From positions 35,357 through 99,356 of the forward strand of contig JAZKHE010000004.1 in the NCBI GenBank assembly GCA_040385525.1: a DNA stretch of 64,000 bases, in the 5' to 3' direction. This DNA is from Bacteroidota bacterium. GTDB lineage: Bacteria > Bacteroidota > Bacteroidia > UBA4408. Below are positions 9,059-60,706 of this stretch, one piece after another (position 1 is the first letter of the stretch; every line of letters begins with the position of its first letter). The notes under the pieces were generated by a model. The model did no database searches. It worked only from the letters and a program-made list of their open reading frames with translations, and had not been told where the DNA came from. Both the position numbers and the translations under genes were made by a program.

Positions 9059-9079
9059 TGTAGATTTAAAAAAATAATT

Positions 9080-24966: not shown

Positions 24967-24982
24967 GCGGTCCGGACGGGAC
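24967..24982. repeat. attR-like 16-bp direct repeat of the tRNA-Asp 3' end (GCGGTCCGGACGGGAC).
   Basis: Exact 16-mer match to 60611-60626, which is the 3' terminal 16 nt of tRNA-Asp (reverse complement). A GC-rich 16-mer in an AT-rich 64-kb window is very unlikely by chance. Confidence 0.7.
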
Positions 24983-27862: not shown

Positions 27863-27904
27863 TTTTTTAAAATTAAGAGGCTGTTTAATTACAACCTCTT
27901 TTGT

Positions 27905-29308
27905 TTAACTTTTATTCATCCTTACTATTCTTGGCGTAAACGAGCCTTCAACATTAACGAGGCCGGATTGATTACTCATAACTGTTTCAATATCTTTATA
28001 AGCTAATGAAGATTCTTGGACACTACCACCAATTAATTTAACCTTGTGTTGATCAAGAGTTACGTTCATTTGTGATTTTGTTATTTTTTCACTTGCTTCT
28101 CTTCTCGACATTTTTCTTCCAGCTCCATGTGAAGCAGAGTTCAATGAACCTGAAGCTCCAACACCACTAACAATATAGCCTTTACTCGTCATACTACCCG
28201 GAATGATCCCCAATTCACCTTTAGCAGCAGGGGTAGCTCCTTTTCTGTGCACTATTAATTCTTGCCCATCGTGGATTTCTTTCCATGCAAAATTGTGATG
28301 GTTTTCAACTTTACAAATGGCTTTTAAACCCATAAAACGTTCTAGATTATTATGAATTACATCGTGGCAAGCTTTAGCATAGTCGCCTGCTAAATTCATC
28401 GATAACCAATATTCTTGGCCAGCTTCGTCATCCATACTCAACCATGCCATAGAACGCATTTCTTTTGGAAGTTTACATTTTTCCATTGCAATTTTTGTGT
28501 AAATACCTGCAATAGTAGCTCCCATTCCTCTAGACCCGCTGTGCGATAATAAGCCAATGTATTTCCCTGCAGCAATTCCTAAAGCGTTATTTTCATTTAT
28601 TTCCACATCACCAAATTCAACAAAATGATTTCCTGTACCCGAAGAACCTAGCTGATAACGAGCTTTTCCATGCAATCTTTTAAGCAAATCGGTTGCTTTA
28701 AATTCCCGTCGTTCCAAAACTTCATGATCTACATCAAAATCAAGCGTACCATCATTACCAAAATGAGTACATCTACGTAAAGCTTTTTGCAAATCATACT
28801 CTTTTTTAAGAATATAATTTTCTGGCAATTCATAGATACTTAAAGCCATTCTGCATCCAATATCTAAGCCAACTCCAAAAGGAATTACAGCGTTGTTAAC
28901 AGCAAGTGCAGCTCCAATTGGTAAACCATAACCATGGTGCGCATCAGGCATTAAAGCTCCTTTAACCGATACAGGTAAACGCATCGCTGCTTCCATTTGA
29001 AGAATAGCATTTTGACCAATAAGACGTTGACCGTAAATAGTAAAATCGCCAGTGTTTTTAAGCACATGAACTTCGTAACTGGTTTTAATTTTTGGCTTAC
29101 CACATAACTCATCTGATAAGGGTTTCAAAAATTCGTGTTCCAAATATTGTTCAGGATCTAAAAGAACGTTATTAATTATTTCTAATTTTTCATCTATCGA
29201 AAAGTGTTTATAGTTTTTCGACATAATATTTATAGCCACACTTTTGGCTATATCTGATGGGAAATCAAATTTTCTAAGATGCTTTCCCGTTATGAGATTT
29301 TTTCCCAT
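27905..29308 (-). CDS. rtcB: RtcB-family RNA 3'-phosphate ligase (paralog B, PrfH-associated).
   Basis: 467 aa. RtcB motifs GNHFVEFG, HSGSRGMG, SASHGAGRKMSR. Confidence 0.8.
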   Translation of the reverse strand: MGKNLITGKHLRKFDFPSDIAKSVAINIMSKNYKHFSIDEKLEIINNVLLDPEQYLEHEFLKPLSDELCGKPKIKTSYEVHVLKNTGDFTIYGQRLIGQNAILQMEAAMRLPVSVKGALMPDAHHGYGLPIGAALAVNNAVIPFGVGLDIGCRMALSIYELPENYILKKEYDLQKALRRCTHFGNDGTLDFDVDHEVLERREFKATDLLKRLHGKARYQLGSSGTGNHFVEFGDVEINENNALGIAAGKYIGLLSHSGSRGMGATIAGIYTKIAMEKCKLPKEMRSMAWLSMDDEAGQEYWLSMNLAGDYAKACHDVIHNNLERFMGLKAICKVENHHNFAWKEIHDGQELIVHRKGATPAAKGELGIIPGSMTSKGYIVSGVGASGSLNSASHGAGRKMSRREASEKITKSQMNVTLDQHKVKLIGGSVQESSLAYKDIETVMSNQSGLVNVEGSFTPRIVRMNKS

Positions 29309-29490
29309 GATATTTTTTAAATTTTATGGGCATGATTTTTCCTTTACAGTTTTTTTAATGCAAAGGATAAGTTCATAAAACGCATAGCATTTTTACCCTG
29401 TTTTTTTTTATAAAATGATTTTTTGGTTTCCGGATTTTTCTGTCTCCCCAGAATTTTATTTGTTTTTAGTTTATTTTGAAAAAATAAAAC

Positions 29491-29520
29491 AAATAAAAAA
29501 GCCCGGCATTAAACCGGGCT
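29491..29520 (-). terminator. Rho-independent terminator downstream of rtcB paralog A.
   Basis: Minus-strand reading: GCCCGGTTTAATGCCGGGC hairpin (6-bp GC-rich stem) followed by TTTTTTATTTG. Confidence 0.6.
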
Positions 29521-29909
29521 GAATATATTGATATTAGCAGCTTTTCGGCTTAAAACGTCGTATGTGAATTTGCTACTAACATAATTTCTTTTCTTTTTTT
29601 GGTTGGTGTTTTTTAATAAATCTGTCACAAATGTAAATCAAAAAATTGATTTGTCAAGTACAAAATATTTTTTTTTGCGTTAAAATTATTTCATTTATTT
29701 TTTTTAACCTTCAGAAGCATTGTAAAAAAAGGTGTTATAGAGGTTAATTAAAATGATTATAAATTTACCAAAGTCAAAAAAATTAAACAAAGTTTTTGTT
29801 GAGCTATCAGTTATAAAACAGAATAGGGTTTCAACCTAGATCCTTCAATTTGTCAATAGACAGACGACGATCAACCGAAGTGTCTCTATTCATGTCACTT
29901 TTGAATACT

Positions 29910-31331
29910 TTAATCTTCTCTGCTGCCATCATCTGCCATACGAACAATTTTAGGAGTAAATTTTGCAACTACATCAATTAGGTCTTTTTGTGAAGCCATA
30001 ACAGTTTCTATATTTTTATAAGCCATCGGTGCTTCATCTAAACCAGCACCAATTAATGTTACACCATGATCCTTTAGTACTTTTCTCATTTCGTCTTTAG
30101 AAATATTTTTAATTGCTTGTGTTCTACTCATTTGTCGACCTGCACCGTGTGATGCTGAATTAATTGCATTTGCTTCACCTTTACCTCTTACTAAAAAACC
30201 AGGGGCTGTCATTGATCCAGGTATAATACCCATTACATCTTTAGAAGCAGGAGTAGCACCTTTTCTATGAACAATTACTTCTTCTCCGTTCCACATCTCC
30301 TTCCAAGCAAAATTATGATGGTTCTCTACTTTAGCCAATACTTCTGCACCAATAGCTTTAGCTAAACGATTGTGAATTATTTCATGACAAGCTGATGCAT
30401 AATCACCAGCTAAATTCATTGCCATCCAATACTCTTGTCCTTCAGCAGAATTCATATCTAAGTAAGCTAAATTTGCTGCTTCTTTAGGAAGTTTACAAAT
30501 TTCTTTCGCTACTTTGGTATAATATCCTGCTATTGTTGCACCAAATCCTCTTGATCCCGAATGTGTTAACAACGCTAAGTATTTTCCTTTTTTGATATTT
30601 AATTTTTCATCATCATTTTCAAATTCAATAATTCCAAATTCTACAAAGTGATTTCCGCCACCTGAAGAACCTAATTGTTCAACAGCTTTTTGTTGAAGAT
30701 TTTTTACAAACGGTGTCATATTAAACTCTGTTCTATCTAATATTGAATGCTCAGCTCTATATTTACCATGCCATCCAGCGCCAGCGCCAAATTTAGTCCA
30801 GGCAATTAACTCTCTTTTATATTTGCTTTCATTCTCTATAAAATGATTCTCATTAATATCATAGATGGACAAAGCCATTCTACAACCAATATCAACGCCT
30901 ACACCATAAGGAATAATAGCGTTTTTTGTAGCCAATACTCCACCAATTGGTAAACCATACCCTTGATGAGCATCAGGCATTAAAGCACCAGCAACTGTTA
31001 CGGGCAATTTCATGGCTATTTCCATTTGATTAATTGCGCCTTGCTCAATGTTTTCTGAACCAAAAATAGAATAAAACATTCCTTGCTCTTTTAATGCAAC
31101 AGTAGCATCTTCATTTGGTTTTTCAATTAATTTTTGAGCAATAGCTTCAAGAACTTCGTCGTCTAAAAAGTTCTCTGGATATTGAACTACCTTAGTTAAA
31201 ATTGCGATTACTTCCTCTTTCTCTAATTCAGCATAATTTTGCTCAACTACTTTAATGGCTATTCCAATTACTTTTCCTTCAGGATAACCTAAAGCTTTTA
31301 ATTCAGCTCCTGATACGTTAACTATTTTCAT
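29910..31331 (-). CDS. rtcB: RtcB-family RNA ligase (paralog A).
   Basis: 473 aa. GGGNHFVEFG, HSGSRGFG, SASHGAGRQMSR. Roughly 50-55% identical to paralog B by eye. Monocistronic: an operator-like palindrome lies upstream and a terminator downstream. Confidence 0.8.
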   Translation of the reverse strand: MKIVNVSGAELKALGYPEGKVIGIAIKVVEQNYAELEKEEVIAILTKVVQYPENFLDDEVLEAIAQKLIEKPNEDATVALKEQGMFYSIFGSENIEQGAINQMEIAMKLPVTVAGALMPDAHQGYGLPIGGVLATKNAIIPYGVGVDIGCRMALSIYDINENHFIENESKYKRELIAWTKFGAGAGWHGKYRAEHSILDRTEFNMTPFVKNLQQKAVEQLGSSGGGNHFVEFGIIEFENDDEKLNIKKGKYLALLTHSGSRGFGATIAGYYTKVAKEICKLPKEAANLAYLDMNSAEGQEYWMAMNLAGDYASACHEIIHNRLAKAIGAEVLAKVENHHNFAWKEMWNGEEVIVHRKGATPASKDVMGIIPGSMTAPGFLVRGKGEANAINSASHGAGRQMSRTQAIKNISKDEMRKVLKDHGVTLIGAGLDEAPMAYKNIETVMASQKDLIDVVAKFTPKIVRMADDGSRED

Positions 31332-31418
31332 CTTGTTTTTTTTAATTATGATACAAAATAAATACTAAACTACGCAGTCAAATTGCGCAGTTGATTTTTT
31401 TTCATTTTTTTTTAAAAT

Positions 31419-31440
31419 CCCTCGCCCAAATTGACGAGGG
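31419..31440 (-). terminator. Possible terminator hairpin after the SPFH gene.
   Basis: CCCTCG-cccaaattga-CGAGGG hairpin 10 nt after the stop. Only a short U-run (AUUUUA) follows on the minus strand. Confidence 0.3.
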
Positions 31441-31450
31441 ATGCTACAAT

Positions 31451-32551
31451 TTATTTACCTGGAACAAATATCTGTTTTAACTGATCCACTAAATGAGTTC
31501 CTCCTGACAATGAAATATTATTAATTTTCTCTGCAATCTTCTCTACATATTCCATTTCTTTCAATTTAAACAACATAGTGTTTTCTTCCATCAATTTAGC
31601 AGTATTCAATAAACTTCTAGTTGAAGCAGTTTCTTCTCTTCTCATGATGGTATTAGCTTGAGCCTTTTTCTCCGCAACTAATACTTGATTCATAATATCT
31701 TTCATATCTCCTGGCAAAATTATATCTCTGATACCACTTCCTTTCAATACTACTCCCAAAGATTCTACTTTTTCAGACATCGACTCCATAACATAAGCTG
31801 AAATAGATTCTTTTTTTTCTAACAACTCATCTAATGTTAATGAACCTATGAACTCTCTCAAAGCTAATTGCAACAGTACATATAGTTGTTTATCATACTC
31901 CTTGTTATTTACTAACGCCTTAACAATATCTTTTATATTGTATTGAGCATAGAAATTAACTCTTAGTGCTGCTTTGTCTTTTGTCAAAATCTCTTGTCCA
32001 GCAATTTCCATTTGCATAGTTCTTAAATCAGCTCTTGAAATCACAATAGAAGTGCTATTCTTCCAAAAGTTGTAAGTACCTGACTCCATGATTTTATGAA
32101 ATTTACCATCAACATACATCACTGCTTTTTCATGTGCTTCAACTACAAAGTTCCTCACAAATGGGGCGATTTCTTTTTTAGTCAATAAAGATTTATCGAT
32201 GTCATTATCAATTTCAATTTGATTTAAATCAATGATATTAAAATTGTAATTTATCAAGCCTTTCCAAAAAATGTATCTACCAGCATTTAATACAGTAGTA
32301 AATAATCCATTTTCGTATTGTAAAGCAATTTCATTATTTTTTACTTCAACAATCAAAGTTGCATTTAGAAAATCTTCATTTTTTAATAAGATATTTATAT
32401 TAACTGGCGCTATTAATGGTTTTGACATATCACAGTCAAATACAACCATAGTTGGCCACAACCAATATGTACCTTCGTTTAAAACTTTTACCAAATTATC
32501 ATTTTTAAACACTAAGCCTTTTTTCCAGGCATTTATTTTTACTCTTTTCAT
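31451..32551 (-). CDS. SPFH/band-7 (stomatin/HflKC-like) domain protein, apparently without a TM anchor.
   Basis: SPFH core ...TKDKAALRVNFYAQYNIKD...LDELLEKKESISAYV...GVVLKGSGIRDIILPGDMKDIMNQVLVAEKKAQANTIMRREETA. N-terminal triple repeat of a GTYxFW hairpin motif. Confidence 0.6.
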   Translation of the reverse strand: MKRVKINAWKKGLVFKNDNLVKVLNEGTYWLWPTMVVFDCDMSKPLIAPVNINILLKNEDFLNATLIVEVKNNEIALQYENGLFTTVLNAGRYIFWKGLINYNFNIIDLNQIEIDNDIDKSLLTKKEIAPFVRNFVVEAHEKAVMYVDGKFHKIMESGTYNFWKNSTSIVISRADLRTMQMEIAGQEILTKDKAALRVNFYAQYNIKDIVKALVNNKEYDKQLYVLLQLALREFIGSLTLDELLEKKESISAYVMESMSEKVESLGVVLKGSGIRDIILPGDMKDIMNQVLVAEKKAQANTIMRREETASTRSLLNTAKLMEENTMLFKLKEMEYVEKIAEKINNISLSGGTHLVDQLKQIFVPGK

Positions 32552-32869
32552 TTTATTTTTGTTTTAATGATGGATGAATCCGGCATCATACCATCGGGGT
32601 TATTTAATTTTTTATAAAAAAGAAGGAACAATTCATTCATTAATTTTAAGCGAAGTTCGACTTAAGCTCATGTCTCAAATGATGGTTTATATAAATTCAT
32701 AATCCATTAAAAGGAAAACTATACTTTATAGAAAGCAGCATCTTTACAGAAGCGGTATCCGTGCCCCTTGGCAAATCATCAATTGCTTTTTACAAATTTA
32801 TATGCTAAAGCTGAATGAGATTATCCCTTCTTAATTAGGAGCCTTTTTTATAGAAGTTGGCGTCTTCTT

Positions 32870-33011
32870 CCACTGAAACCACAATTCAGCGCTCTAACCA
32901 ACTGAGCTATTCCAATTTTGAGCTGGAAGCAGGATTCGAACCTGCGCTTTGAGGTTGCTGCTCTACCAACTGAGCTATTCGCTATTAACGAAATGGGAAT
33001 CGAACCCATGA
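32870..33011 (-). pseudogene. Cluster of degenerate tRNA-like fragments: a 5'-truncated tRNA-His(GTG)-like piece, a related 5'-truncated piece fused to an unrelated T-arm/acceptor, and an isolated T-arm+acceptor 3' piece.
   Basis: Minus-strand reads GGAATAGCTCAGTTGGTTAGAGCGCTGAATTGTGGTTTCAGTGG (D-arm plus anticodon arm, loop TTGTGGT gives GTG), GCGAATAGCTCAGTTGGTAGAGCAGCAACCTCAAAG|CGCAGGTTCGAATCCTGCTTCCAGC, and CATGGGTTCGATTCCCATTTCGTTAA. None folds into a complete cloverleaf. ORF 32848-33072 is spurious. Confidence 0.5.
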
Positions 33012-33403
33012 CACACAACGTGAGACACACAAAATAATTACGCAGAATACAAGCAATCAAAGATTGTTGCACTATGGGGAAAGGAAACCCTCATCTTGGC
33101 GCAAAAATTTATTTATGCATCATTCTCCTCTTTTCAGAGAAGATTTTTAATCCTGATTTTCAGGAAATATTTTCAAGGAACTTTATTACTTTAAATCAAC
33201 GATGCAAATTTTATACTCATGTACGCAGTCGAATTGCGTACTAAAATTATTTTTAAATAGTTTATCAATTTAAAATGTAAATGACTGGTTTTCAACAAGA
33301 AAAAATCACTAGTAATTAGGTTAATTTTAAATCTACGCAAATACAATGCGTAGATGATTAATAAATAGTATATTTACGTTAACTAATTTTTCAAAACTTC
33401 AAT

Positions 33404-34417
33404 ATGCCAATTAATAAATTAGCTTTAGTTAGATACAAAACAATAGATAATTGTTTGCAAAATCGTTTTAGAAAATGGACATTAGAAGACTTAATGGAAG
33501 CCTGTTCTGATGCGATTTATGAATATGAAGGAATTACAAATGGAGTAAGCAAACGCACTATACAACTAGATATTCAGAACATGCGCAGTGAAAAACTAGG
33601 ATATAATGCCCCTATTATAGTTACAGATAAAAAATATTATAGCTATGAAGAAAAGAATTATAGTATTACTAATATTCCTTTAACACAACAAGATTTAAGC
33701 ACCTTGAATGAAGTACTTGATGTATTAAAACAATTTAAAGGTTTTGGTTATTTCCAAGAATTAAACGGAATGGTTACTCGTTTAGAAGATAAACTTTATA
33801 AACAACAACATAGAGGCAAGTCATATATTGATTTCGAAAAAAACGAATTATTAAAAGGATTAATACATATTGATGCACTACATAAAGCAATTATTAATAA
33901 GAAAACAATTGAAGTAACTTATCAATCATTTAAAGCAAAGCTTCCACAGCAAATTGTATTTTATCCCTATTTATTAAAAGAATACCGCAATAGGTGGTTT
34001 ATTTTAGGTGCAAATAAAAATGGAAAAACAATAATGATATTAGCATTAGATAGAATAGAAAAATTTAAAGAATTAAATTCTGAAAAATATCACAAATCAG
34101 AATTTGATGTTAATACTTATTTTAATGATGTAATTGGTGTTTCAAAAATGCCCACCCAGAAGCCACAACTTATTGTTATGAAAATAATTAAAGAGCATGC
34201 TCCATATATAATTACAAAACCCATGCATAGTTCACAAAAAATTTTGAGTGAAGATTCTGAAGGAGTTATCTTTTCAATTGAAGTTATTTGGAATTTTGAG
34301 CTGGAAAGAGAAATTCTTGGCTTTGCTGAACATTTAAAAATAGTTAGTCCTAAAAGATTATCAGGAAGAATACAATCACGAATGAAGAATACACTCACAA
34401 AATATCAAATGGAATAA
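33404..34417 (+). CDS. WYL-domain transcriptional regulator (HTH_11 + WYL; BrxR/CapW-like architecture).
   Basis: N-terminal HTH (GVSKRTIQLDIQNM). WYL hallmark YRNRWFILGANKNGKTIMILALDRIEKF. Two palindromic TACGCA-N7-TGCGTA sites lie upstream. Confidence 0.65.
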   Translation: MPINKLALVRYKTIDNCLQNRFRKWTLEDLMEACSDAIYEYEGITNGVSKRTIQLDIQNMRSEKLGYNAPIIVTDKKYYSYEEKNYSITNIPLTQQDLSTLNEVLDVLKQFKGFGYFQELNGMVTRLEDKLYKQQHRGKSYIDFEKNELLKGLIHIDALHKAIINKKTIEVTYQSFKAKLPQQIVFYPYLLKEYRNRWFILGANKNGKTIMILALDRIEKFKELNSEKYHKSEFDVNTYFNDVIGVSKMPTQKPQLIVMKIIKEHAPYIITKPMHSSQKILSEDSEGVIFSIEVIWNFELEREILGFAEHLKIVSPKRLSGRIQSRMKNTLTKYQME

Positions 34418-34491
34418 TTTTAAAATTTATTCTTGCATTATTAAAATTAATATTTAACTTTGCAGTACAAAGTACTTTTAACTAATTCAAA

Positions 34492-35130
34492 ATGACTGAA
34501 AATAACAAGCACTTAGAGAACCTTTCCGAAATTAGAACATTAATGGAAAAATCTTCTAGATTTATTTCATTAAGCGGTTTATCGGGCGTTGCAGCAGGGT
34601 TATTTGCTTTATCTGGTATTGTGGCAGCCTATTTATATTTGCCTACTGTAATGAAGTCGGGTGAATACTATAAAGCTGCATTCACTGATAATGGAGAAAT
34701 TAATTTTCAATTTTTTAGTTTCTTTATAGTTGATGCAAGTATTGTTTTGTTAGGCTCTATTGTTTTTGGAATTTACTTTACCGTTAGAAAATCACAAAAG
34801 AAACAACAAGCTATTTGGGATAATACTTCAAAAAGATTACTAATAAATTTATCTATACCCCTAGTTACTGGCGCAATTTTTTGTTTCGTTTTATTATACC
34901 ATGGCTTAATTGGTTTAATAGCCCCTGCTACTTTAATTTTTTATGGTTTAGCGTTAATAAACTCTAGTAAGTATACATTAAATGATATTAGATATTTAGG
35001 GATAATTGAAGTTATTTTAGGCTTAATTTCTTCTTTCTTTATTGGTGCTGGATTATTGTTTTGGGCAATTGGTTTTGGTGTGCTTCATATAATTTATGGT
35101 ATTGTTATGTACAATAAATACGAAAAATGA
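34492..35130 (+). CDS. Hypothetical integral membrane protein (4-5 TM).
   Basis: Hydrophobic segments. The next gene overlaps by ATGA. Confidence 0.45.
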   Translation: MTENNKHLENLSEIRTLMEKSSRFISLSGLSGVAAGLFALSGIVAAYLYLPTVMKSGEYYKAAFTDNGEINFQFFSFFIVDASIVLLGSIVFGIYFTVRKSQKKQQAIWDNTSKRLLINLSIPLVTGAIFCFVLLYHGLIGLIAPATLIFYGLALINSSKYTLNDIRYLGIIEVILGLISSFFIGAGLLFWAIGFGVLHIIYGIVMYNKYEK

Positions 35131-35426
35131 AAACATACATTGAGGACTTAAATAAAGCTTTTGAAAGTAGAATTAGGCTCGGCATTATGTCTATACTTAT
35201 GGTTAATGACAGCGTTGATTTTGCTACCATTAAAGAGTTATTAGATATTACTGACGGTAATCTTGCAAGCCACATATCTGCATTAGAAAAATTAGAATAC
35301 TTAAAAGTTATTAAACAATTTGTAGGAAAAAAACCAAACACTTCATATAGCATAACTAAACAAGGTAGAAAAGCCTTCACAAACCATTTAGATGCTTTGG
35401 AAAAATTATTAAAAAATAGAGCATAA
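35127..35426 (+). CDS. Small winged-helix transcriptional regulator (PadR-like).
   Basis: 99 aa. wHTH-like pattern and basic wing (FVGKKPNTSYSITKQGRKAF). Translationally coupled to the upstream membrane protein. Confidence 0.5.
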   Translation: MKTYIEDLNKAFESRIRLGIMSILMVNDSVDFATIKELLDITDGNLASHISALEKLEYLKVIKQFVGKKPNTSYSITKQGRKAFTNHLDALEKLLKNRA

Positions 35427-35445
35427 ATTTTTTTACACTTAAACT

Positions 35446-35961
35446 TTGAAATTCAAAGTACTTTTAAATATGAAAACAAAATTTGAACTAGACCAAAAAA
35501 AGAAAATAAAAAGGATTCTTATCGTTTTTATAACTCTCTTATTATTAAGTGGTATAACTGCTTTCCCAATTGAAATTGAACTACAGTTATTGCAAAATAT
35601 AGCCATAAAATCGCCAAACGTTTTAAGCGAATGGATTACTACTGTATACAACGCTATATCTATAACTAACAATAGTTTTCCATATCTATCTTATGGAACA
35701 GATTGGCTTGCTTTTGCTCATATAGTAATTGCGGGAATGTTTATTGGCCCATTAAAAGATCCAATAAAAAATATCTGGATAATTCAATTTGGAATTGTTG
35801 CTTGCATAATGGTTATTCCAACTGCTTTTCTTTGCGGATATATAAGACACATTCCATTTTATTGGCAACTAATTGATTGTTCTTTTGGAGTATTTGGTAT
35901 GATACCACTTATAATTTGTAAAAAGAAAATAACCATTCTCGAAAACTTAAAAATAAAATAA
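35446..35961 (+). CDS. Hypothetical integral membrane protein.
   Basis: 171 aa, ~4 TM segments. Confidence 0.4.
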   Translation: MKFKVLLNMKTKFELDQKKKIKRILIVFITLLLLSGITAFPIEIELQLLQNIAIKSPNVLSEWITTVYNAISITNNSFPYLSYGTDWLAFAHIVIAGMFIGPLKDPIKNIWIIQFGIVACIMVIPTAFLCGYIRHIPFYWQLIDCSFGVFGMIPLIICKKKITILENLKIK

Positions 35962-35983
35962 ACAAACCTAAAACAAACTAAAT

Positions 35984-38509
35984 ATGAAAACTCTACTAAA
36001 CAAAATCCTAAATGATAAAACATTATTTACAGGTATAATTTTTATTATTTTATCATTAGTTGTATTTATTATACCTGAACTAAATTCTTTAAAAATCAAT
36101 AACAACGCATTTTTAGGAGTGTTTTTTGTTAATTATTGTTTTATAATCATTTATATTATAGTACTGCTAGGAAAAACATTTTTTCAAAAATGGAAATTTT
36201 TAAACTTCAAATTTGAATACGCCACAGTACTTTCAATTCTATATTTGATAAGTGCATTTTCATTAAACAGAGAAATACCAATTTTTGAAGACTCAGTATT
36301 ATGGGTAAGTATATTTTTGTGTATCCAGTGTACTTCAATTATACTATTATCGCTTTTAGACGAAAACTCATCTAAACTACTTAAACATATTTTAATCGGT
36401 ATAAATGGAGTTGGAATAGTGTTTTATATTTATTACACAATCTATTTAACTCCCTTTTATTTAATTGGAATGATTGGTGGTCTTTTTTTTGGGGTTGGCT
36501 TACATGTGTTTGTACCTGCTTTTTGCGTGGTGTTAATATTACTTAGAGTTAGAAAAGAATATAAAATAAATAAGCAATTTATTTATTCTTTTGTTGTTGG
36601 CGTATTAATAGCTAGCACAGCTACTATCCTATTTGTATCACAATGGCAAAAATATTCAACAAAAATTAATTACATCATTAACGACCAAGTAGCTAATGAT
36701 AATAATTTGCCACTTTGGGTTAATCTAAGTCAACAAATTGAAAAAAACCATTTTACTGAAAAAATATTTAAAAGCAATTTAGTTTATACGGTTTACAACA
36801 ACAATAAATTCTGGCAATTTGGATTTCCGCAAGAGTTGTTTGATGAAGTTAAAAAACACGACCCATTAGTAATGATTGCTTCATTTTTCTCAAATGTTCC
36901 AGATATAAGTGATAAAGAAAAAATTAAAATATTAGAATCAATGTATGATTCTAGACACCAAGCTCAAGAAAGACTTTGGTCTGGCGATATGCTACAAACA
37001 TCTAATGTAATAAGTAATGTTAAACTGTTTCCTGAATATAGAATTGCTTACACCGAAAAAATAATAAGCATTAGTAATAATGATGTAAAAAACAATTGGA
37101 ATAACGAAAAAGAGGCAATCTATACTTTTTATTTACCAGAGGGAGGAGTTGCAACATCACTTTCGTTATGGATTAATGGAAAAGAAGAAAAAGGAATTTT
37201 AACTACAAAAAGCAAAGCAGATTCGGCATACAAAACAATTGTTGGTGTAGAATCAAGAGATCCATCTGTGGTTCATTGGCAAGAAGGAAATACATTATCT
37301 GTTAGAGTTTTTCCATGCACATCTAAAGAAAACAGACGATTTAAATTAGGCATTACCGCTCCTTTAAAAAAATATAAGAATAAACTAGTATATCAAAACA
37401 TCTATTTTGATGGTCCTAATTCATTAAACGCAACAGAAAGCGTACAAATTCAAATTACTAAAGATGTTGCTAACATTGAGTTTCCGTTTTTATTTGAAGA
37501 AATTAAAAACAACGTTTATAAAGCCGAAAAAAAATATAGCCCTTATTGGGAAATAAATTTTGATGAAGTTCAATTATCAAAAGAAACTTTTTCTTTTGAT
37601 AATAACACCTACTCTATTTCTAATTATTCAAAAACCTATGAAAGTTTTAATGCTCAAAAAATATACCTAGATATAAATTCATCATGGACAAAAACTGAAA
37701 TGGATGAAATTTGGAAAGCAATTAAAACCAAAGAAGTGTATGTGTTTCAAGACGAAATGATAATTGTAAACAATAATAATTTAAAAAAATTGTTTGAACA
37801 ATTACAGAAAAAAAACTTTAGTCTTTTTCCTTTCGATAAAATTGAAATGCCCGAAAAATCATTGGTTATTTCTAAAAGCACATCAACTTCTCCTAATTTA
37901 AAAGACATTCAAGAATCTGTATTTTTTGAAGAGCTTAAAAAACAATTACAAAAAAACACACAAGTTAGAATGTTCAATTTTGGAGATAATCTTTCGCCCT
38001 ACTTAAAAAGCTTAAAAGAATTAAGAGTGTTTGTATACGACGAAGGAAGCACTAAAAAACTAAGTGATAACATTTTAAACTCCAAATTTATATTAAATCA
38101 AGAAAATGATTCTTCAATTGTAATTGATAACGCAGAAATTATAATACGAAAAGAATTAGGAAATAAAAATGAAAATGCACCCGATCATTTATTAAGACTA
38201 TATGCTTACAACAATGTTTTAAAAACTGTAAGCAAAAATTATTTCAATAATAATTTTATAAATGATGATGTAATAAGTGAAGCCGAATTAGCATATGTTG
38301 TTACTCCTGTATCAAGTTTAATTGTTTTAGAAACAAAACAAGATTACGAAAGATTTGATATTGTAGCGAGTAAAAACAGTTTAAAAAATGCCTCTATAAA
38401 ATCATCTGGCGCAGTGCCAGAACCGCATGAATGGTTGCTAATTATTATTGCAGCTTCAATAATAATTTACTTACGTTTTAAACCCTACTTTATTAAAAAA
38501 GCAGCATAA
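35984..38509 (+). CDS. Polytopic membrane protein with a VIT (vault protein inter-alpha-trypsin)-like domain and a C-terminal PEP-CTERM-like sorting signal. Putative exosortase substrate/partner.
   Basis: ~8 N-terminal TM helices. VIT-like block EAIYTFYLPEGGVATSLSLWINGKEEKGILTTKSKADSAYKTIV. C-terminus ...GAVPEPHEWLLIIIAASIIIYLRFKPYFIKKAA (PEP motif + TM + basic tail). Its stop overlaps the exosortase start. Confidence 0.6.
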   Translation: MKTLLNKILNDKTLFTGIIFIILSLVVFIIPELNSLKINNNAFLGVFFVNYCFIIIYIIVLLGKTFFQKWKFLNFKFEYATVLSILYLISAFSLNREIPIFEDSVLWVSIFLCIQCTSIILLSLLDENSSKLLKHILIGINGVGIVFYIYYTIYLTPFYLIGMIGGLFFGVGLHVFVPAFCVVLILLRVRKEYKINKQFIYSFVVGVLIASTATILFVSQWQKYSTKINYIINDQVANDNNLPLWVNLSQQIEKNHFTEKIFKSNLVYTVYNNNKFWQFGFPQELFDEVKKHDPLVMIASFFSNVPDISDKEKIKILESMYDSRHQAQERLWSGDMLQTSNVISNVKLFPEYRIAYTEKIISISNNDVKNNWNNEKEAIYTFYLPEGGVATSLSLWINGKEEKGILTTKSKADSAYKTIVGVESRDPSVVHWQEGNTLSVRVFPCTSKENRRFKLGITAPLKKYKNKLVYQNIYFDGPNSLNATESVQIQITKDVANIEFPFLFEEIKNNVYKAEKKYSPYWEINFDEVQLSKETFSFDNNTYSISNYSKTYESFNAQKIYLDINSSWTKTEMDEIWKAIKTKEVYVFQDEMIIVNNNNLKKLFEQLQKKNFSLFPFDKIEMPEKSLVISKSTSTSPNLKDIQESVFFEELKKQLQKNTQVRMFNFGDNLSPYLKSLKELRVFVYDEGSTKKLSDNILNSKFILNQENDSSIVIDNAEIIIRKELGNKNENAPDHLLRLYAYNNVLKTVSKNYFNNNFINDDVISEAELAYVVTPVSSLIVLETKQDYERFDIVASKNSLKNASIKSSGAVPEPHEWLLIIIAASIIIYLRFKPYFIKKAA

Positions 38510-39831
38510 TGATTATTGAATATTTTAAGAATTTTACTAAAAAGCAAATAACAACTTTAGTGTTGTTATTTGCTTACTTAATAACTGGTTTTTTTTTACT
38601 TAAAAACTTCATTATTGTTGATGTGAATGTGTTTTTAGGATTAGCTATTACTCCTTATGTTATTGATTTTGAAAAGGGAGCATATTCACAAAAATATTTA
38701 GTCCCAACAGTATTACTTCTTATTCTTTCTTTTTACATTCAAATTTATACTTTAGTATTCTTAATAGTTTTATTTGGTATTATCTATTTATTAGAAAGTA
38801 GAATCGGGAAAGTTAGCTACCTATTCTTTTTCTTACTTATTATTTTATCTCCTATTTTTAAATTCTTAAGTAATTCAATTGGTTTTCCGATAAGATTATG
38901 GCTTAGCGAAGTAACAGGAAATTTATTATTATTTACTGGAAAAAAAGTTGAAACCATAGGTAATATAATTATTATAGATGGATTTGAATTTTCTGTTGAT
39001 CCTGCTTGTGCAGGCTTAAAAATGATGGCTATATCATTTATAATTTCTATTTTTTTAATTGCCTACTTTCAAAACAAAATAAAAAGTAGAATTTCATTTT
39101 TTCAGGTTTCAATTATTTTAATTTTCACATTTATACTAAATGTTATTTGCAATCTATTTCGGATAATTTCATTAATAATTTTTAAAATTTTACCTGATAA
39201 TCCACTGCACGATTTTGTTGGTATAGTATGTTTGTTGCTTTATGTTATTTTACCTCTATTTTTTGTAATCAAATTAATTTTAAAATTTTCTAAATATGAG
39301 CCAAGCGCTAAACCAGAGCAAAACAAAATAAGTAGGCTAAACATTCTTTACAATTCAATAATTATTTGTTCACTCCTATTTTCAAGTTTCAAAATTCAAA
39401 ATAGTAATTCAACAACAATAATAACAAACATCATTACTATTGACGGATTTAAAAAAGAAATTTTAAAAACAGGAATTACAAAATTTGAAAACAATAATGC
39501 ACTAATTTATTTAAAGCCACTACAGTTTTACAATGCAGAACATAACCCAATGTTATGTTGGACAGGTAGTGGATATGAGTTTAGTACAATAAACAAAATA
39601 AAAATTAGTGGAATTGATGTTTATACTGGAGTTATGAAAAAAGGCAACGACAAAATATATACTGCTTGGTGGTTTGATAATGGCACAACAAAAACTATTA
39701 GTCAAATCGAATGGAGATGGGTATCTGCAAAAGAGAACTCTTTATGTTATTTAATTAATGTTAGTGCTAGTTCTCAAAAAAATTTAATTATTCAAACCGA
39801 AAACTTACTAAAGCAGCAAATCATAAAATAA
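38509..39831 (+). CDS. Exosortase-family (Xrt; XrtF/XrtN-like) transmembrane transpeptidase.
   Basis: Multi-TM protein with the conserved exosortase Cys motif in DPACAGLKMM (ACSGLR-like). Adjacent to a PEP-CTERM-like protein. Confidence 0.6.
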   Translation: MIIEYFKNFTKKQITTLVLLFAYLITGFFLLKNFIIVDVNVFLGLAITPYVIDFEKGAYSQKYLVPTVLLLILSFYIQIYTLVFLIVLFGIIYLLESRIGKVSYLFFFLLIILSPIFKFLSNSIGFPIRLWLSEVTGNLLLFTGKKVETIGNIIIIDGFEFSVDPACAGLKMMAISFIISIFLIAYFQNKIKSRISFFQVSIILIFTFILNVICNLFRIISLIIFKILPDNPLHDFVGIVCLLLYVILPLFFVIKLILKFSKYEPSAKPEQNKISRLNILYNSIIICSLLFSSFKIQNSNSTTIITNIITIDGFKKEILKTGITKFENNNALIYLKPLQFYNAEHNPMLCWTGSGYEFSTINKIKISGIDVYTGVMKKGNDKIYTAWWFDNGTTKTISQIEWRWVSAKENSLCYLINVSASSQKNLIIQTENLLKQQIIK

Positions 39832-40094: not shown

Positions 40095-40330
40095 ATTTTG
40101 CCAACAATTGCGAACTTTTGCCAACTTTTGCCAACTTTTACGGGAAATTTGCCAACTTTTTCGGAAAATCAGCCAGCTTTTTCGACCTCATTTTCAAAAT
40201 TCAGCTCCATTTTCCGTCATATTTTCGATTTTGACTACACTTTTTCAGTTTATACAGCATTTTTTTAGCATTCAAAATAGATTTTGGCTGAATTTTACTG
40301 CATTTTTTAAAAAACTCAAGCTTTTTTGTC
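40095..40330. repeat. Iteron-like direct repeats (TTTTGCCAACTTTT x ~5) embedded in ~20 phased T-tracts at ~10-11-bp spacing (predicted intrinsically bent DNA), inside a 1-kb ORF-free gap between convergent genes.
   Basis: 40097-40185 reads attttgccaacaattgcgaacttttgccaacttttgccaacttttacgggaaatttgccaactttttcgg. The periodic tttt tracts continue to ~40330. The ORFs 40077-40543 read through the repeats and are spurious. Confidence 0.55.
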
Positions 40331-40887: not shown

Positions 40888-43800
40888 TTAAACTCTTAAC
40901 ATCCTTTTTAAAGTATCTTGCATTGCAATTCTAAACGCATCGTCTTTTGCTAATAAGCGATATAATTCCAGTTCGTTTTTACGTTCAGAAGAAACTACAT
41001 CCTCAAATATTTTCATAAAGGCAATGCCTTTATTTTGTTCATCCATGTTTTCTTCAAACTTAGTTTTGAAATCAGGATGAGATTGTATTTTACTGGCAAG
41101 GCTTACAAACTTAACACGTTGTTCTTCTGGTGTTATACTCCAGCCTTGAAACCAACGTTCGTTAAAGCTCTTAATAATTAAATCTAATTGGTCTTCCTCT
41201 GAATCGCTACCATGTGCACTTCGTGGATTTGGATTTTGTGGGTCTAATTCAGTTTCAGTTGAATCTAATCCAATGTGTGCATTTAATTTAACTCGTTCTA
41301 ACCCATAGGTTGATAAATCAACTGAATTTAATAATTCGTCTAATGCATCTGAATTGCGGTCAATGATAACTAATTTTGGAATTAAGAATTTTAAAAACCA
41401 AAAAAGCTTTTCCCATTTTAAAACTTCATAAGGCAATATTGAGGCCATTTGTCCGTAAATCTTCACAAACTGCTTGGCTTTAATTTTATAATCTGCTTTT
41501 ACCTTGTCTTCTAATTCGAGTTGATTGTTAAATCTATCGGCTGCAATATCAATTATGGGACTTAATTGCTCAGCATTAACTCCTTTAAAATATTTCTCTA
41601 CAAAATCTTCTACCTCGCTCCATTCATAAACGCCTGCATCATCTAAATGTGTTTTTAATTCATGTAATACATTAACGTCAGTTGCTTTACTTAATGTGGT
41701 TGATGTATAAAATGGATCAAAGGCTTGTTTAATATCTTCGGTTGCATTAAAGAAATCGAGTACAAATAAATCTTCCGTTTTTTTCCCTAGTTTATCTGCT
41801 GCACGGTTTAATCGTGATAGAGCTTGAACAGCTAAAACACCTTGTAGTTTTTTATCTACATACATGGCGGTTAGCTTTGGTTGATCGAATCCTGTTAAAT
41901 ATTTATTGGCAACAACTAACACTTTATAGTCATCTTCATCAAATTTATCTCGTGTATCTTTTTCTGCAAAACCATTTAAACTATCTTCCGTGTACTCAAT
42001 ACCATTAACCAGTTTTGAGCCCGAAAAAGCAATAGCAGCCTTAAATGGATTTCCTTTTTCATTTAATATTTCTTGAATAGCTTTAAAGTAATGAATAGCG
42101 GATTCTATACTTTGAGTAATAACCATCGCTTTTGCCTTACCTTTTAATTTTTTGGTATTTACTATTTTGGAAATAAAATGATCCATCATAATATCTGCTT
42201 TGGTAGCAATGGTATCTTTATTTCGCTCAACAAAAGCACGTAATTTTTTTTGAGCTTTAGAGGTATCAAATAATGGGTTTTCAGAAATAGATTTTTCTAT
42301 TTCATAGTAGCTTCTATAAGTTGTATAATTTGCTAATACATCTAAAATAAAACCTTCTTCAATCGCTTGTTTCATTGAATATAAGTGGAAAGGCTTGTAC
42401 TTACCATCTTCTTGTTTTACTCCAAATTTTTCAAGTGTTATGTTTTTAGGTGTTGCTGTAAAGGCAAAATATGAGGCATTAGTACTCATTTTGCGATTAT
42501 GCATTGCCTCAATAATTTTATCTTGAGCATCTGTTTCTTCTTCATCGCCAGTACTTGAAATAGCACGATTCATATTATCTGCTGCTGAACCACTCTGTGA
42601 ACTATGAGCTTCATCAATAATAACTGCAAAGCGCTTATCACTTAAATCGGCGATACCATCTACAATGAATGGAAATTTTTGAATGGTAGTAATGATGATT
42701 CGTTTACCACTTTCTAAACTTTCTTTTAATTCTTTTGATGAGTAAGCTGGAGCCACAATGTTTTTTACTTCAGAAAACTCTTTAATATTTTCTCTTAATT
42801 GCTTATCCAATAATCTTCTATCAGTAACAATAATTACTGAATCAAATAATGGATTTGATACTCCTTTACTTCCAGGAACGGTATTGTTGATTGGATACGT
42901 TTCAATTAATTGATAGGCTGCCCATGTAATTGAATTGGATTTACCTGAACCTGCAGAGTGCTGTATTAAATACGTTTGACCTAATCCATTTTCGCTTGCA
43001 TGATTTATTAAACGCCTTACTACATCCATTTGATGGTAACGAGGGAAATATAAACTCTTTTTATTTAAAGCATCTGTTTCTTTTCCATCAAAGCGAACAA
43101 AGTGTTGAATAATATTTGCTACACTTTGACGTGTTAATACTTCATCCCACAAATAACTTGTTTTATGACCAAATGGATTTGGGGGATTTCCTTTACCAAA
43201 GTTGTGACCTAAATTAAATGGTAAAAAGAATGTATTACCTCCATCTAATTTAGTTGTCATATATACCTCGTCGGTATCAACTGCAAAATGGACTAAGCAT
43301 CTGCCAAATTGCAATAATGGTTGTGTTATATCTCGTTTAAACTTGTATTGGTTTTGACCATGTACCTTGGCATTTTGACCTGTCCATTGATTTTTTAATT
43401 CAACAGTGCTAAATGGTATACCATTAATAAATAATACCATGTCAATTTCTTCGCCTTTATTAACTTCTGAATAACGAATTTGGCGTGTAACACTAAATTC
43501 ATTTTTATCAAAATTATCTTTAACTGTTTGACTACTGCTTGCTAGAGGCAATTGATATAATAACGTGAAGTGAGCGTCATCCACTTCTAATCCTTTACGC
43601 AACAAACGAATGATGCCGTATTTTTTAATTAAACGATCTAAACGTTCGAGTATCTTTAATTTCCAATCACTTTGTTTTTGTAGTTTAAGTAATTCTTCTT
43701 TTTGAGTAGTTTCTAGAAAATGCCAAAAGCGGTTTTCATCAATGGCAAATTGTGGATTAAAATCTTTGGCTTCACCTAAATAATAACCATTACCACTACG

Positions 43801-43926
43801 ATAGAGTTCTGCTCTTTCGGCAAAAGCATTTACTACCCCTAAAGCTTTTAATTCTTCAAGAGTTGTACCTGTTAATTTTTTTTCAATTACAGCTTCAAGA
43901 GCTTGTTCGTTGGTTTGACTAGTCAT
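40888..43926 (-). CDS. hsdR: Type I restriction enzyme R subunit (HsdR).
   Basis: 1012 aa. Walker A GSGKSNSI. DEAH box VIIDEAHSSQSG. Helicase C domain. C-terminal HsdR-specific region. Confidence 0.85.
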   Translation of the reverse strand: MTSQTNEQALEAVIEKKLTGTTLEELKALGVVNAFAERAELYRSGNGYYLGEAKDFNPQFAIDENRFWHFLETTQKEELLKLQKQSDWKLKILERLDRLIKKYGIIRLLRKGLEVDDAHFTLLYQLPLASSSQTVKDNFDKNEFSVTRQIRYSEVNKGEEIDMVLFINGIPFSTVELKNQWTGQNAKVHGQNQYKFKRDITQPLLQFGRCLVHFAVDTDEVYMTTKLDGGNTFFLPFNLGHNFGKGNPPNPFGHKTSYLWDEVLTRQSVANIIQHFVRFDGKETDALNKKSLYFPRYHQMDVVRRLINHASENGLGQTYLIQHSAGSGKSNSITWAAYQLIETYPINNTVPGSKGVSNPLFDSVIIVTDRRLLDKQLRENIKEFSEVKNIVAPAYSSKELKESLESGKRIIITTIQKFPFIVDGIADLSDKRFAVIIDEAHSSQSGSAADNMNRAISSTGDEEETDAQDKIIEAMHNRKMSTNASYFAFTATPKNITLEKFGVKQEDGKYKPFHLYSMKQAIEEGFILDVLANYTTYRSYYEIEKSISENPLFDTSKAQKKLRAFVERNKDTIATKADIMMDHFISKIVNTKKLKGKAKAMVITQSIESAIHYFKAIQEILNEKGNPFKAAIAFSGSKLVNGIEYTEDSLNGFAEKDTRDKFDEDDYKVLVVANKYLTGFDQPKLTAMYVDKKLQGVLAVQALSRLNRAADKLGKKTEDLFVLDFFNATEDIKQAFDPFYTSTTLSKATDVNVLHELKTHLDDAGVYEWSEVEDFVEKYFKGVNAEQLSPIIDIAADRFNNQLELEDKVKADYKIKAKQFVKIYGQMASILPYEVLKWEKLFWFLKFLIPKLVIIDRNSDALDELLNSVDLSTYGLERVKLNAHIGLDSTETELDPQNPNPRSAHGSDSEEDQLDLIIKSFNERWFQGWSITPEEQRVKFVSLASKIQSHPDFKTKFEENMDEQNKGIAFMKIFEDVVSSERKNELELYRLLAKDDAFRIAMQDTLKRMLRV

Positions 43927-43931
43927 TTAAA

Positions 43932-47214: not shown

Positions 47215-47238
47215 AATTAATATTCCTATTTAAATATA

Positions 47239-55786: not shown

Positions 55787-55804
55787 ATTAAATTTATTTA
55801 TTAA

Positions 55805-57221: not shown

Positions 57222-57222
57222 G

Positions 57223-60492: not shown

Positions 60493-60610
60493 TTGTTAAA
60501 CATTTTAACCAAAATTGCTAAAATTAGAGATTCTCTATTTTTAGAAAACGCCGCCAAACGCCTATAAAACAAAGAAACCTAAAATTACATTTCTGTAATT
60601 TTAGGTTCTG

Positions 60611-60686: not shown

Positions 60687-60706
60687 AATGTCTTAGTTTA
60701 ACTCCG

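Follow-up and report, generated by a model that had tools for sequence, protein, structure and literature searches.

An exosortase N cassette with a putative palindromic operator on a tRNA-Asp island of a Bacteroidota bacterium

The catalytic triad of the exosortase family has been inferred to be Cys/Arg/His (bioRxiv 10.1101/2023.06.07.544157). In the archaeosortase ArtA, the Cys and Arg that correspond to those of exosortase N (XrtN) are required for activity (PMC9263693), and the C-terminal helix of the target is removed and a lipid is attached (bioRxiv 10.1101/2023.06.07.544157). Among exosortases of Bacteroidota, XrtF of Flavobacterium johnsoniae has been studied by mutation, and its mutants show defects in colonising surfaces and in forming biofilms (PMC10936215). 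The described system closest to the one considered here is the XrtN system. It is already catalogued in NCBIfam, as models TIGR04476 and TIGR04477, and consists of a predicted membrane cysteine protease and a single VIT-domain membrane protein as its presumed target. Full-text literature searches for XrtN, experiments included, and for an exosortase together with a VIT domain returned nothing relevant. Because no experiment on XrtN was found in the library searched, we infer the function of the system, including whether and where the target is cleaved and whether a transfer follows.

We analysed a 64-kb stretch of DNA (64,000 nucleotides, referred to as the window) from a Bacteroidota bacterium. 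All six open reading frames of the initial annotation were recovered at their coordinates. Positions 34457-39831 hold five genes in the order mem212, HTH_34, mem171, VIT protein and XrtN. We consider it quite probable that this segment is a single five-gene cassette, a regular XrtN dedicated exosortase system of Bacteroidota, controlled through a palindrome by the HTH_34 regulator. As regards the core pair, nothing goes beyond what NCBIfam already records. What is added to the known XrtN system is a conserved DNA site of putative repressor type, linking the cassette to a small regulator, and the unusual position of the cassette in an integrated mobile island.

Exosortase N and its VIT-domain partner

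The last gene of the cassette (38509-39831, + strand) encodes a protein of 440 amino acids, 100% identical to an NCBI entry named "exosortase N". The protein matched TIGR04476 with 375.5 bits (cut-off 200) over residues 16-414, covering positions 5-405 of the 406 of the model. The superfamily signature TIGR04178 was matched on residues 161-256 with 37.8 bits (cut-off 23) and Exosortase_EpsH (PF09721) with 64 bits (cut-off 25.7). XrtF was not among the NCBIfam matches of the protein. The subfamily, which the initial annotation had left to be classified, is thus exosortase N. The protein contains the DPACAGLKMM motif noticed at the outset, and 32 XrtN sequences all share the residues C167, N211, N215, R218 and H234. 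The triad had been given as Cys/Arg/Asn; it has to be amended to the Cys/Arg/His of the literature (bioRxiv 10.1101/2023.06.07.544157), represented here by the invariant C167, R218 and H234. These three residues lie in a polytopic core, which is followed by a conserved, beta-rich C-terminal domain of about 130 amino acids. An AF2 model of XrtN was obtained with a pLDDT of 85.1. Its comparison with the PDB using Foldseek gave no significant match, no solved exosortase fold being found. The C-terminal domain had no Pfam match at E <= 10, and a weak DcrB/PsbP-like similarity of this domain was observed with Foldseek (E about 0.01). Judged by its family membership and conserved residues, XrtN would be a membrane-embedded cysteine protease, or possibly a transpeptidase, acting on a VPEP tail.

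The start of the XrtN gene overlaps by 1 nt the stop of the preceding gene (35984-38509, + strand), as initially reported. This gene encodes an 841-residue protein 100% identical to an NCBI protein already named XrtN system VIT domain-containing protein. Its match to TIGR04477 reached 988.1 bits for a cut-off of 250 and extended over positions 3-819 of 822. The VIT domain, recognised initially from the motif EAIYTFYLPEGGVATSLSLWINGKEEKGI, which is indeed present, was confirmed by PF08487 on residues 368-455 (38.5 bits, cut-off 26.5) and by a fold match. In the AF2 model (pLDDT 84.4), the N-terminal membrane domain comprises seven helices, or eight if the kinked helix 156-195 is counted twice. 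The membrane domain noted earlier is therefore upheld, and its count of about eight transmembrane (TM) helices is corrected to seven. The best match of the model in the PDB, found with Foldseek, was ITIH1 (6fpy; E 9e-15, 590 columns). An alpha/beta domain carries the residues D563-x-N565-x-S567 at its beta1-alpha1 loop. VWA gave no Pfam match on this domain at E <= 10. Overall, the model describes a protein in which a seven-TM N-terminal domain tethers an ITIH-like ectodomain, made of the VIT domain and of a vWA-like alpha/beta domain, and which ends with a C-terminal sorting signal.

This signal (38414-38506, + strand; GAVPEPHEWLLIIIAASIIIYLRFKPYFIKKAA in the protein) is tripartite, with VPEP at residues 811-814 and HEW, then about 20 hydrophobic residues, then an end rich in R and K. 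Among 42 homologues, no variation is seen at S808, G809, P812, E813, P814 and E816, and almost none at W817. The invariant tail can thus be written as SG-x-VPEP-x-EW, then a TM helix, then a basic end, and it is kept in about 75 loci. No second VPEP-type tail occurs in the 64-kb window. Taken alone, the tail is recognised by TIGR04477 (51.8 bits, positions 784-820), whereas the generic PEP-CTERM model TIGR02595 stays below its cut-off (13.4 bits against 16, E 0.11), while aligning over positions 1-23 of 24. Scanning the tail against Pfam at E <= 10 returned no match. In sequence, the tail is PEP-CTERM-like but of a distinct flavour.

XrtN loci were compared in 80 other genomes, the neighbours within 8 kb being examined. 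The VIT-protein gene lies immediately 5′ of XrtN in 78 of these 80 genomes. Together with the family profile scores and the retention of the tail across loci, this bears out the first description of the pair as an exosortase with an adjoining VIT-domain partner bearing a PEP-CTERM-like tail. The idea that a polytopic cargo is unusual has to be dropped, since this architecture defines TIGR04477 and is distantly shared with the MSEP-CTERM proteins (TIGR04286).

These features are consistent with the following course of events. The VIT protein would insert into the inner membrane and expose its ectodomain to the periplasm, tethered at both ends. XrtN may then cleave it at or near VPEP, on the outer face of the membrane, so that the C-terminal helix would be lost. 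The new C-terminus would be freed or, by analogy with the archaeosortase ArtA, passed to an acceptor. Because the seven-TM anchor is retained, removal of the tail would not release the VIT protein, which would stay in the membrane through its N-terminal domain. With this structural model, C-terminal processing becomes open to a direct proteomic test in culturable carriers, Pedobacter or Mucilaginibacter.

The mem212-HTH_34 pair and the palindrome

The cassette opens with mem212 (34492-35130, + strand), coding for a multi-pass membrane protein of 212 amino acids that belongs to no Pfam or NCBIfam family. Its gene overlaps by 4 nt (ATGA) that of a 99-residue winged-helix transcription regulator (35127-35426, + strand), and the two are translationally coupled. 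The same overlap is found in 30 of 46 loci. The regulator had been described as PadR-like. It gave no match to PadR (PF03551) at E <= 0.01 and belongs instead to the HTH_34 family (PF13601; 109.6 bits, E 8.6e-32), for which a literature search returned nothing relevant. mem212 and HTH_34 stand 5′ of the VIT-XrtN pair in 59 of the 80 loci. Among loci whose upstream sequence extends to 4 kb or more, 51 of 58 have the pair and seven lack an adjacent one. The two genes co-occur in every locus that has either of them. The association of an upstream membrane protein and a small regulator with the exosortase pair, as first noticed, is therefore real.

The mem212 family is very large, its members are found in the absence of XrtN as well, and the mem212-HTH_34 pair is a Bacteroidota-wide module that extends far beyond the XrtN systems. 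Other genes headed by mem212-HTH_34 are those for DUF4153, CreD, DUF1361, diacylglycerol kinase and mem171. From these gene neighbourhoods, the mem212-HTH_34 unit appears to be a general operon leader of Bacteroidota, with interchangeable inner-membrane genes downstream and VIT-XrtN as one frequent passenger; mem212 would act as a membrane sensor for HTH_34 or as its partner. The third gene of the cassette, mem171 (35446-35961, + strand), encodes a membrane protein of about 163-171 amino acids, likewise outside any Pfam or NCBIfam family. Translation probably begins at the ATG at 35470, because the TTG start sits within the conserved palindrome described below. The mem171 family numbers 749 representative clusters at E <= 0.001. 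It is found in 21 of 80 XrtN loci, before VIT or after XrtN, and also in HTH_34 operons devoid of XrtN; we regard mem171 as an optional accessory. No further conserved partner gene within 8 kb of XrtN was present in more than 12 of the 80 loci.

Two copies of a palindrome, ACTTTG-N5-CAAAGTACTT, were found in the 64-kb window, for 0.49 expected. Palindrome 1 (34457-34473; ACTTTGCAGTACAAAGT, then ACTT) lies about 20 nt 5′ of the mem212 ATG and reads TAACTTTG when the preceding TA is included. Palindrome 2 (35443-35459; ACTTTGAAATTCAAAGT, then ACTT) precedes mem171-VIT-XrtN. Of 63 loci, 58 have an exact copy within 120 nt 5′ of mem212 and the remaining five a copy with one mismatch, the single-mismatch variants carrying G or T at arm position 1. 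A further 66 exact copies were counted in 1.24 Mb. In the other loci, the second exact copy stands just 3′ of HTH_34, directly before VIT (41 of the 66), CreD (6), DUF4153 (2), mem171 (2) or other small ORFs. Both copies also occur in four loci without XrtN (L081-L084), and the palindrome was found as well at loci where the regulator does not adjoin (L011, L023, L028, L043, L070). The distance to the start codons is about 20-25 nt. Scans for sigma-70 promoters and terminators gave counts no better than shuffled sequences, and for the Bacteroidota -7 box TAnnTTTG the window shows no enrichment (108 matches, 128 expected). The common form of the palindrome, TTACTTTG, does not fit this box exactly.

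The conservation and position of the palindrome suggest that it is a putative DNA operator of HTH_34. The winged-helix protein would bind the two sites and control expression, one site serving autoregulation and the other control of the downstream genes, with the co-translated mem212 as the likely signal input. More broadly, we hold in even balance the proposal that mem212-HTH_34 and the two sites form an undescribed, Bacteroidota-wide, membrane-linked transcriptional switch for interchangeable inner-membrane genes, with XrtN systems belonging to its regulon also where the regulator gene lies elsewhere, and captured here by the tRNA-Asp island. The 99-residue regulator and a 21-bp site at two defined positions offer a regulatory handle for characterising XrtN.

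Island setting and alternative explanations

An island of 35.7 kb, integrated at tRNA-Asp (60612-60686), encloses the cassette. The left att-like direct repeat (GCGGTCCGGACGGGAC, 24967-24982) is an exact 16-nt copy of the tRNA-Asp 3′ end, for 0 expected by chance. On the other side, a tyrosine integrase gene (59305-60492) with Phage_integrase, SAM_5 and Arm-DNA-bind_5 domains adjoins the right repeat (60612-60627) in the tRNA-Asp 3′ end, the whole spanning 59305-60627 on the - strand. Genes outside the left border are of housekeeping type. The cassette is thus carried by an integrative island, as initially proposed. Such carriage is not a general property of XrtN systems, since no homologue of the island integrase was found within 8 kb of XrtN in the 80 other genomes. 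The only island genes seen near XrtN in these genomes were RtcB-PrfH in L014 and a SpeE-like gene in L058 and L063. Upstream of the cassette, a gene with WYL and WCX domains (33404-34417, + strand) divergently adjoins a cluster of tRNA-like RNA modules, SPFH, two RtcB genes and PrfH. This WYL regulator had been counted as part of the module; a homologue within 8 kb was found in none of the 80 XrtN loci, and the gene is a neighbour, not a component of the cassette.

Could the cassette nevertheless be an unusual transferable module for surface remodelling or envelope stress, with WYL among its regulators and an odd polytopic cargo special to the island? Its place between the 16-nt repeats with an integrase beside the tRNA, and its G+C content, the lowest in the region (26-28%), speak in favour of this explanation. 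The partners of the sister operons (CreD, diacylglycerol kinase, DUF4153), being inner-membrane proteins, would also fit a membrane-related regulon. However, the architecture is the norm of a curated family, and no homologue of WYL or of the integrase accompanies XrtN within 8 kb in the 80 other genomes. In addition, the nearest relatives are only 48-55% identical and therefore give no sign of recent transfer, and there is no known stress or surface phenotype. We consider this explanation very unlikely. It is quite unlikely that the VIT protein is a permanent, two-ended membrane partner or cofactor, the true substrates lying elsewhere or XrtN acting only as a chaperone or scaffold. Such a role would agree with a seven-TM anchor that makes tail removal useless for release, with a tail below the cut-off of the generic PEP-CTERM model, and with the lack of processing data in the XrtN literature search. 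Against it, a TM helix and then a basic end come directly after the invariant SG-x-VPEP-x-EW, which reproduces precisely the three-part signal carried by exosortase targets (bioRxiv 10.1101/2023.06.07.544157). Moreover, the two genes are adjacent, one to one, in 78 of 80 genomes, a pattern characteristic of an enzyme with a dedicated target, the catalytic residues of XrtN are invariant, and the window holds no further PEP-type tail.

The palindrome itself might instead work at the RNA level, as a hairpin in 5′ leaders that affects translation or the stability of the mRNA, and not as a DNA operator of HTH_34. Being only about 20-25 nt before start codons, it could form a stem of 6-7 bp with a 5-nt loop, and the scans did not locate a promoter relative to it. 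Yet the arms keep their sequence (exact in 118 of 118, by selection) while the loop varies, and single-mismatch variants of one arm are not compensated on the opposite arm. The conserved 3′ flank ACTT creates a second, overlapping palindrome, AAAGTACTTT, and the element always travels with the winged-helix regulator gene, two sites flanking that gene. These observations make an RNA hairpin unlikely and favour the DNA operator.

Comparison with known systems

XrtF, with its associated protein, is also an exosortase of Bacteroidota and has experimental phenotypes, but it belongs to a different subfamily and has no VIT partner. XrtN shares with XrtA (EpsH) and ArtA the same superfamily (PF09721, TIGR04178) and the conserved Cys, Arg and His, and the tail of its partner has the tripartite organisation (motif, TM helix, basic residues) of PEP-CTERM/XrtA and ArtA/PGF-CTERM targets. 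In contrast, the XrtA and ArtA systems are one-to-many and handle secreted targets with N-terminal signal peptides, whereas XrtN has a single target that keeps its seven-TM anchor, with a tail that scores below the cut-off of the generic PEP-CTERM model.

The heavy chains of the ITIH proteins shed a propeptide from their C-terminal end, after which an ester bond joins the new C-terminus to a glycan. This processing is a suggestive parallel, by analogy, to that proposed for the VIT protein. ITIH1 (VIT and vWA) is the best solved-structure match of the VIT-protein ectodomain, the acidic D563 of which occupies a MIDAS-like position in the beta1-alpha1 loop. Sequence identity is about 11%, however, and TM-scores are low (0.29-0.38). 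The VIT protein has the motif DxNxS, not DxSxS, and lacks a Pfam VWA match, and it is membrane-held whereas ITIH1 is eukaryotic, secreted and without a membrane domain.

Another dedicated pair is formed by MSEP-CTERM proteins (TIGR04286) and exosortase K (XrtK, TIGR04287). The VIT protein shows a distant full-length similarity to the former (E 1.7e-15, residues 18-831 against model positions 155-914), and because of this similarity the layout, in which a large ectodomain stands between a polytopic N-terminus and a C-terminal sorting tail, can be taken as common to both. The window proteins nevertheless remain below the cut-offs of the two models (56.1 bits against 150 and 21 against 55), the tail motif is MSEP there and VPEP here, and the XrtK model has 163 positions whereas XrtN, with 440 amino acids, carries an extra C-terminal domain.

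Finally, the complete five-gene version on a tRNA-Asp island distinguishes this locus from the XrtN systems of the 80 other genomes. Its core proteins show no difference from TIGR04476 and TIGR04477, being 48-55% identical to the nearest other members, and the full-length matches, the gene order, the tail and the Bacteroidota setting are the same.

Identity and genomic neighbourhood of the XrtN pair

Translation of the window yielded six ORFs at exactly the coordinates of the initial annotation, and all the peptide strings that it quoted were found in the translations. These ORFs encode a regulator with WYL and WCX domains (33404-34417, plus strand; Pfam), mem212 (a 212-aa multi-pass membrane protein without Pfam or NCBIfam family; 34492-35130), a 99-aa winged-helix regulator overlapping mem212 by ATGA (35127-35426), mem171 (a 171-aa membrane protein, likewise without family; 35446-35961), an 841-aa protein with a VIT domain (35984-38509; PF08487, Pfam) and a 440-aa protein with an Exosortase_EpsH domain (38509-39831; PF09721), the gene of which overlaps the stop codon of the gene before it by 1 nt. 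The 99-aa regulator had been described as PadR-like; Pfam gives HTH_34 (PF13601, 110 bits) without a PadR match. The TTG start of mem171 is mechanical. An ATG at 35470, giving 163 aa, is likelier and agrees better with the homologues; the alignment to the best relative begins at residue 9.

The proposed pairing of an exosortase with a VIT-domain partner was borne out by a curated NCBIfam pair, and the subfamily is XrtN. The 841-aa protein matches TIGR04477, "XrtN system VIT domain-containing protein", with 988 bits (cut-off 250; model positions 3-819 of 822) and the 440-aa protein matches TIGR04476, "exosortase N", with 375 bits (cut-off 200). It is therefore near certain that the two proteins form an XrtN system. 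Both have 100% identity to proteins encoded on a single 426,512-bp MAG contig at NCBI, where both entries already carry their names, the 440-aa one being "exosortase N". The finding is thus real, yet already catalogued. The next-nearest relatives of XrtN and of the VIT protein show 48-55% identity and belong to Pedobacter, Mucilaginibacter, Cytophagales, Chitinophagaceae and similar groups. A literature search found no publications on XrtN.

To describe the neighbourhood, 80 genomic loci around XrtN homologues were fetched and counted by tblastn and ORF clustering. The VIT gene lies immediately upstream of XrtN in 78 of the 80. The mem212-HTH_34 pair is found upstream on the same strand in 59/80 loci, and in 51 of the 58 whose upstream sequence reaches 4 kb or more, which upholds the suggested link of an upstream membrane protein and a small regulator to XrtN. 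mem171 is present in 21/80, before VIT or after XrtN, and any other gene cluster in at most 12/80, at variable position. No XrtN locus carries WYL (0/80); the WYL regulator, previously counted as part of the module, thus lies next to the system without belonging to it.

The mem212-HTH_34 pair is not XrtN-specific. mem212 has at least 8000 relatives, all scored candidates being significant, and the nearest, 60-70% identical, are closer than any XrtN or VIT relative. Three near relatives on long contigs stand in operons without XrtN, in the order mem212, HTH_34, then mem171, DUF4153, DUF6688, DUF1361 and diacylglycerol kinase in varying combinations. At XrtN loci, the inserts between HTH_34 and VIT or after XrtN include CreD, DUF4153, DUF1361, diacylglycerol kinase and DUF2809. 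The unnamed mem171 family comprises 749 representative clusters.

A conserved palindrome upstream of mem212 and VIT

Alignment of the sequences upstream of mem212 revealed a conserved motif, ACTTTG-N5-CAAAGTACTT. In 58 of 63 loci the exact 17-mer stands no more than 120 nt ahead of mem212, usually at 20-25 nt; the remaining five have it with a single mismatch. Conservation covers the arms and the 3′ flank ACTT but not the spacer, which varies; with this flank a second, overlapping palindrome, AAAGTACTTT, arises. Within 1.24 Mb of loci, 66 further exact copies were found: 41 directly upstream of VIT, 6 before CreD, 2 before DUF4153 and 2 before mem171, the rest lying mostly ahead of small ORFs after HTH_34. 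The window holds exactly two palindromes as compared to 0.49 expected, up to one mismatch being allowed; they lie at 34457-34473 and 35443-35459. The TTG of the mem171 ORF falls within the second (window 35446-35470). Many mem212 ORF calls in other loci are overlong through the same artefact, the TTG of ACTTTG being taken as start.

We read the palindrome as a putative HTH_34 operator, one copy serving autoregulation and the other the downstream genes. The main alternative is that it forms an RNA hairpin in the leader. Both copies are present in four loci without XrtN, and VIT keeps the palindrome without an adjacent regulator pair in loci L011, L023, L028, L043 and L070. A sigma-70 promoter scan gave counts no better than those of shuffled sequence. 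The TAnnTTTG box is not enriched in the window; only the first palindrome fits it exactly. Overall, the comparative evidence gives good support to the predicted control by HTH_34 via the two palindromes. mem212 might have a sensing role, a guess that draws on its translational coupling. No description of an HTH_34/mem212 module with dual palindromes and interchangeable membrane-protein genes was found anywhere, and this regulatory link is the part worth keeping.

The integrative island at tRNA-Asp

The 16 nt of the tRNA-Asp 3′-end (GCGGTCCGGACGGGAC, 60612-60627; tRNA-Asp and tRNA-Glu, 60612-60778) are exactly repeated at 24967-24982, with none expected by chance. This direct repeat bounds an integrative island of 35.7 kb, which has a tyrosine integrase next to the tRNA (59305-60492, minus strand; Arm-DNA-bind_5, SAM_5 and Phage_integrase domains). 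The interval contains an AAA/M41 protease-like gene, PrfH, two RtcB, an SPFH protein, tandem tRNA-like modules, WYL, the XrtN cassette (mem212 to XrtN, 34457-39831), a type I restriction-modification system with embedded NsnABC, a polyamine module and an XRE-type regulator. The genes left of 24967 look housekeeping. The earlier placement of the cassette inside the island thus holds for the window. As a general property it fails: in the 80 other loci, no homologue of the island's integrase lies within 8 kb of XrtN. With identity to all relatives low, there is no sign that the cassette was transferred recently.

The tRNA-like modules (32845-33017) lie between the WYL gene and a minus-strand cluster (25192-32551) of SPFH, two RtcB, PrfH (TIGR03072, 235 bits) and the AAA/M41 protease-like gene. 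On the minus strand, Rfam matches YrlA (Y RNA-like, RF02553) at 32955-33017 (46.2 bits, E 5.6e-9) and 32891-32946 (30.7 bits), both below the gathering score of 69, and the tRNA model at 32921-32982 (35.3 bits). ARAGORN called no tRNA at these modules, and no Ro60/Rsr gene was seen. The WYL/WCX regulator matches PADLOC WYL models and is divergent from the tRNA-like/RtcB cluster; it more likely serves the RNA-repair cluster or the island than XrtN.

The 1-kb non-coding gap after XrtN holds a repeat array (40096-40184) of TTTTGCCAAC x4.4 (40096-40139) and a 21-nt unit x2.6 (40130-40184), which might serve the island as a protein-binding array. Beyond it, NsnC, NsnB and NsnA (149, 374 and 376 bits, PADLOC; NsnA with a GmrSD_N domain; 43932-47214, minus strand) are embedded between hsdR and hsdS of the type I operon (40888-50915), and are a defence system nested in a restriction-modification operon. 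The polyamine-type module (52448-57873, minus strand) comprises a membrane-fused polyamine aminopropyltransferase (NF002956, 653 bits), a flavin amine oxidase-like protein and two DUF4178 proteins. Gene types of this island also neighbour XrtN elsewhere, which may be coincidence: Mucilaginibacter dorajii has an RtcB-PrfH pair just downstream (L014 10549-12547; 53%/44% identical to the window's), and two genomes of Rufibacter have a polyamine aminopropyltransferase of SpeE-like type upstream (L058 128-1615, L063 128-1618; 57% identical).

Enzyme, sorting signal and proposed processing

Among 32 aligned XrtN sequences, C167 (in DPACAGL), N211, N215, R218 and H234 are invariant, and the candidate catalytic residues fall in the exosortase/archaeosortase signature TIGR04178 (37.8 bits, cut-off 23). 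The Cys and Arg of the expected Cys/Arg/Asn triad are thus conserved, but the triad inferred for the family has His, not Asn, as its third member (bioRxiv 10.1101/2023.06.07.544157). Archaeosortase ArtA activity requires the equivalent Cys and Arg (PMC9263693). The predicted model (pLDDT 85.1) shows a polytopic core, one further helix and a C-terminal beta-rich domain of ~130 aa, in which H345, C350, W351, G353-G355, W387, W388 and D390 are invariant (n=32); it has no significant match among solved structures. Our literature search found a phenotype for only one Bacteroidota exosortase: surface colonisation and biofilm formation by Flavobacterium johnsoniae depend on its XrtF (PMC10936215).

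The C-terminal tail of the VIT protein is, as had been proposed, recognisable as an Xrt sorting signal. Across 42 aligned homologues S808, G809, P812, E813, P814 and E816 are invariant and W817 nearly so; ~20 hydrophobic residues and then K/R follow. On its own, the tail scores 51.8 bits against the terminal part of TIGR04477 and 13.4 bits, below the cut-off of 16, against the generic PEP-CTERM model, and so represents a distinct flavour of PEP-CTERM-like signal. Such a tail is present in ~75 genomic loci; no other VPEP-type tail occurs in the 64-kb window. Three large proteins with type IX secretion sorting domains (Por_Secre_tail; 1385-9169, minus strand; 18628-21399, plus strand) indicate that the host uses T9SS for surface proteins, consistent with Bacteroidota.

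An AlphaFold2 model of the VIT protein built on the 42 homologues (pLDDT 84.4, pTM 0.75) shows seven membrane helices (residues 12-238), the ~8 first counted being reached only by counting the kinked 156-195 helix as two. A beta-rich region with the VIT domain (337-560), an alpha/beta domain (560-790), a low-confidence linker and a terminal helix (814-840) follow. The sequence suggests an N-in topology with a periplasmic ectodomain, given the lysine-rich loops at 64-78 and 188-199 and the basic C-terminal end. By analogy with its family, XrtN would probably remove the C-terminal helix at VPEP, the ITIH-like ectodomain probably staying attached via the 7-TM domain; the new C-terminus might possibly be transferred to an acceptor.

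Pfam called no VWA domain in this protein. In the model, D563 and N565, both invariant, and S567, the commonest residue at its position, immediately follow the first strand of that alpha/beta domain, the place expected for a MIDAS motif. The top solved-structure match is the VIT-vWA protein ITIH1 (6fpy; E 9e-15 over 590 columns), with low TM-scores and 11% identity.
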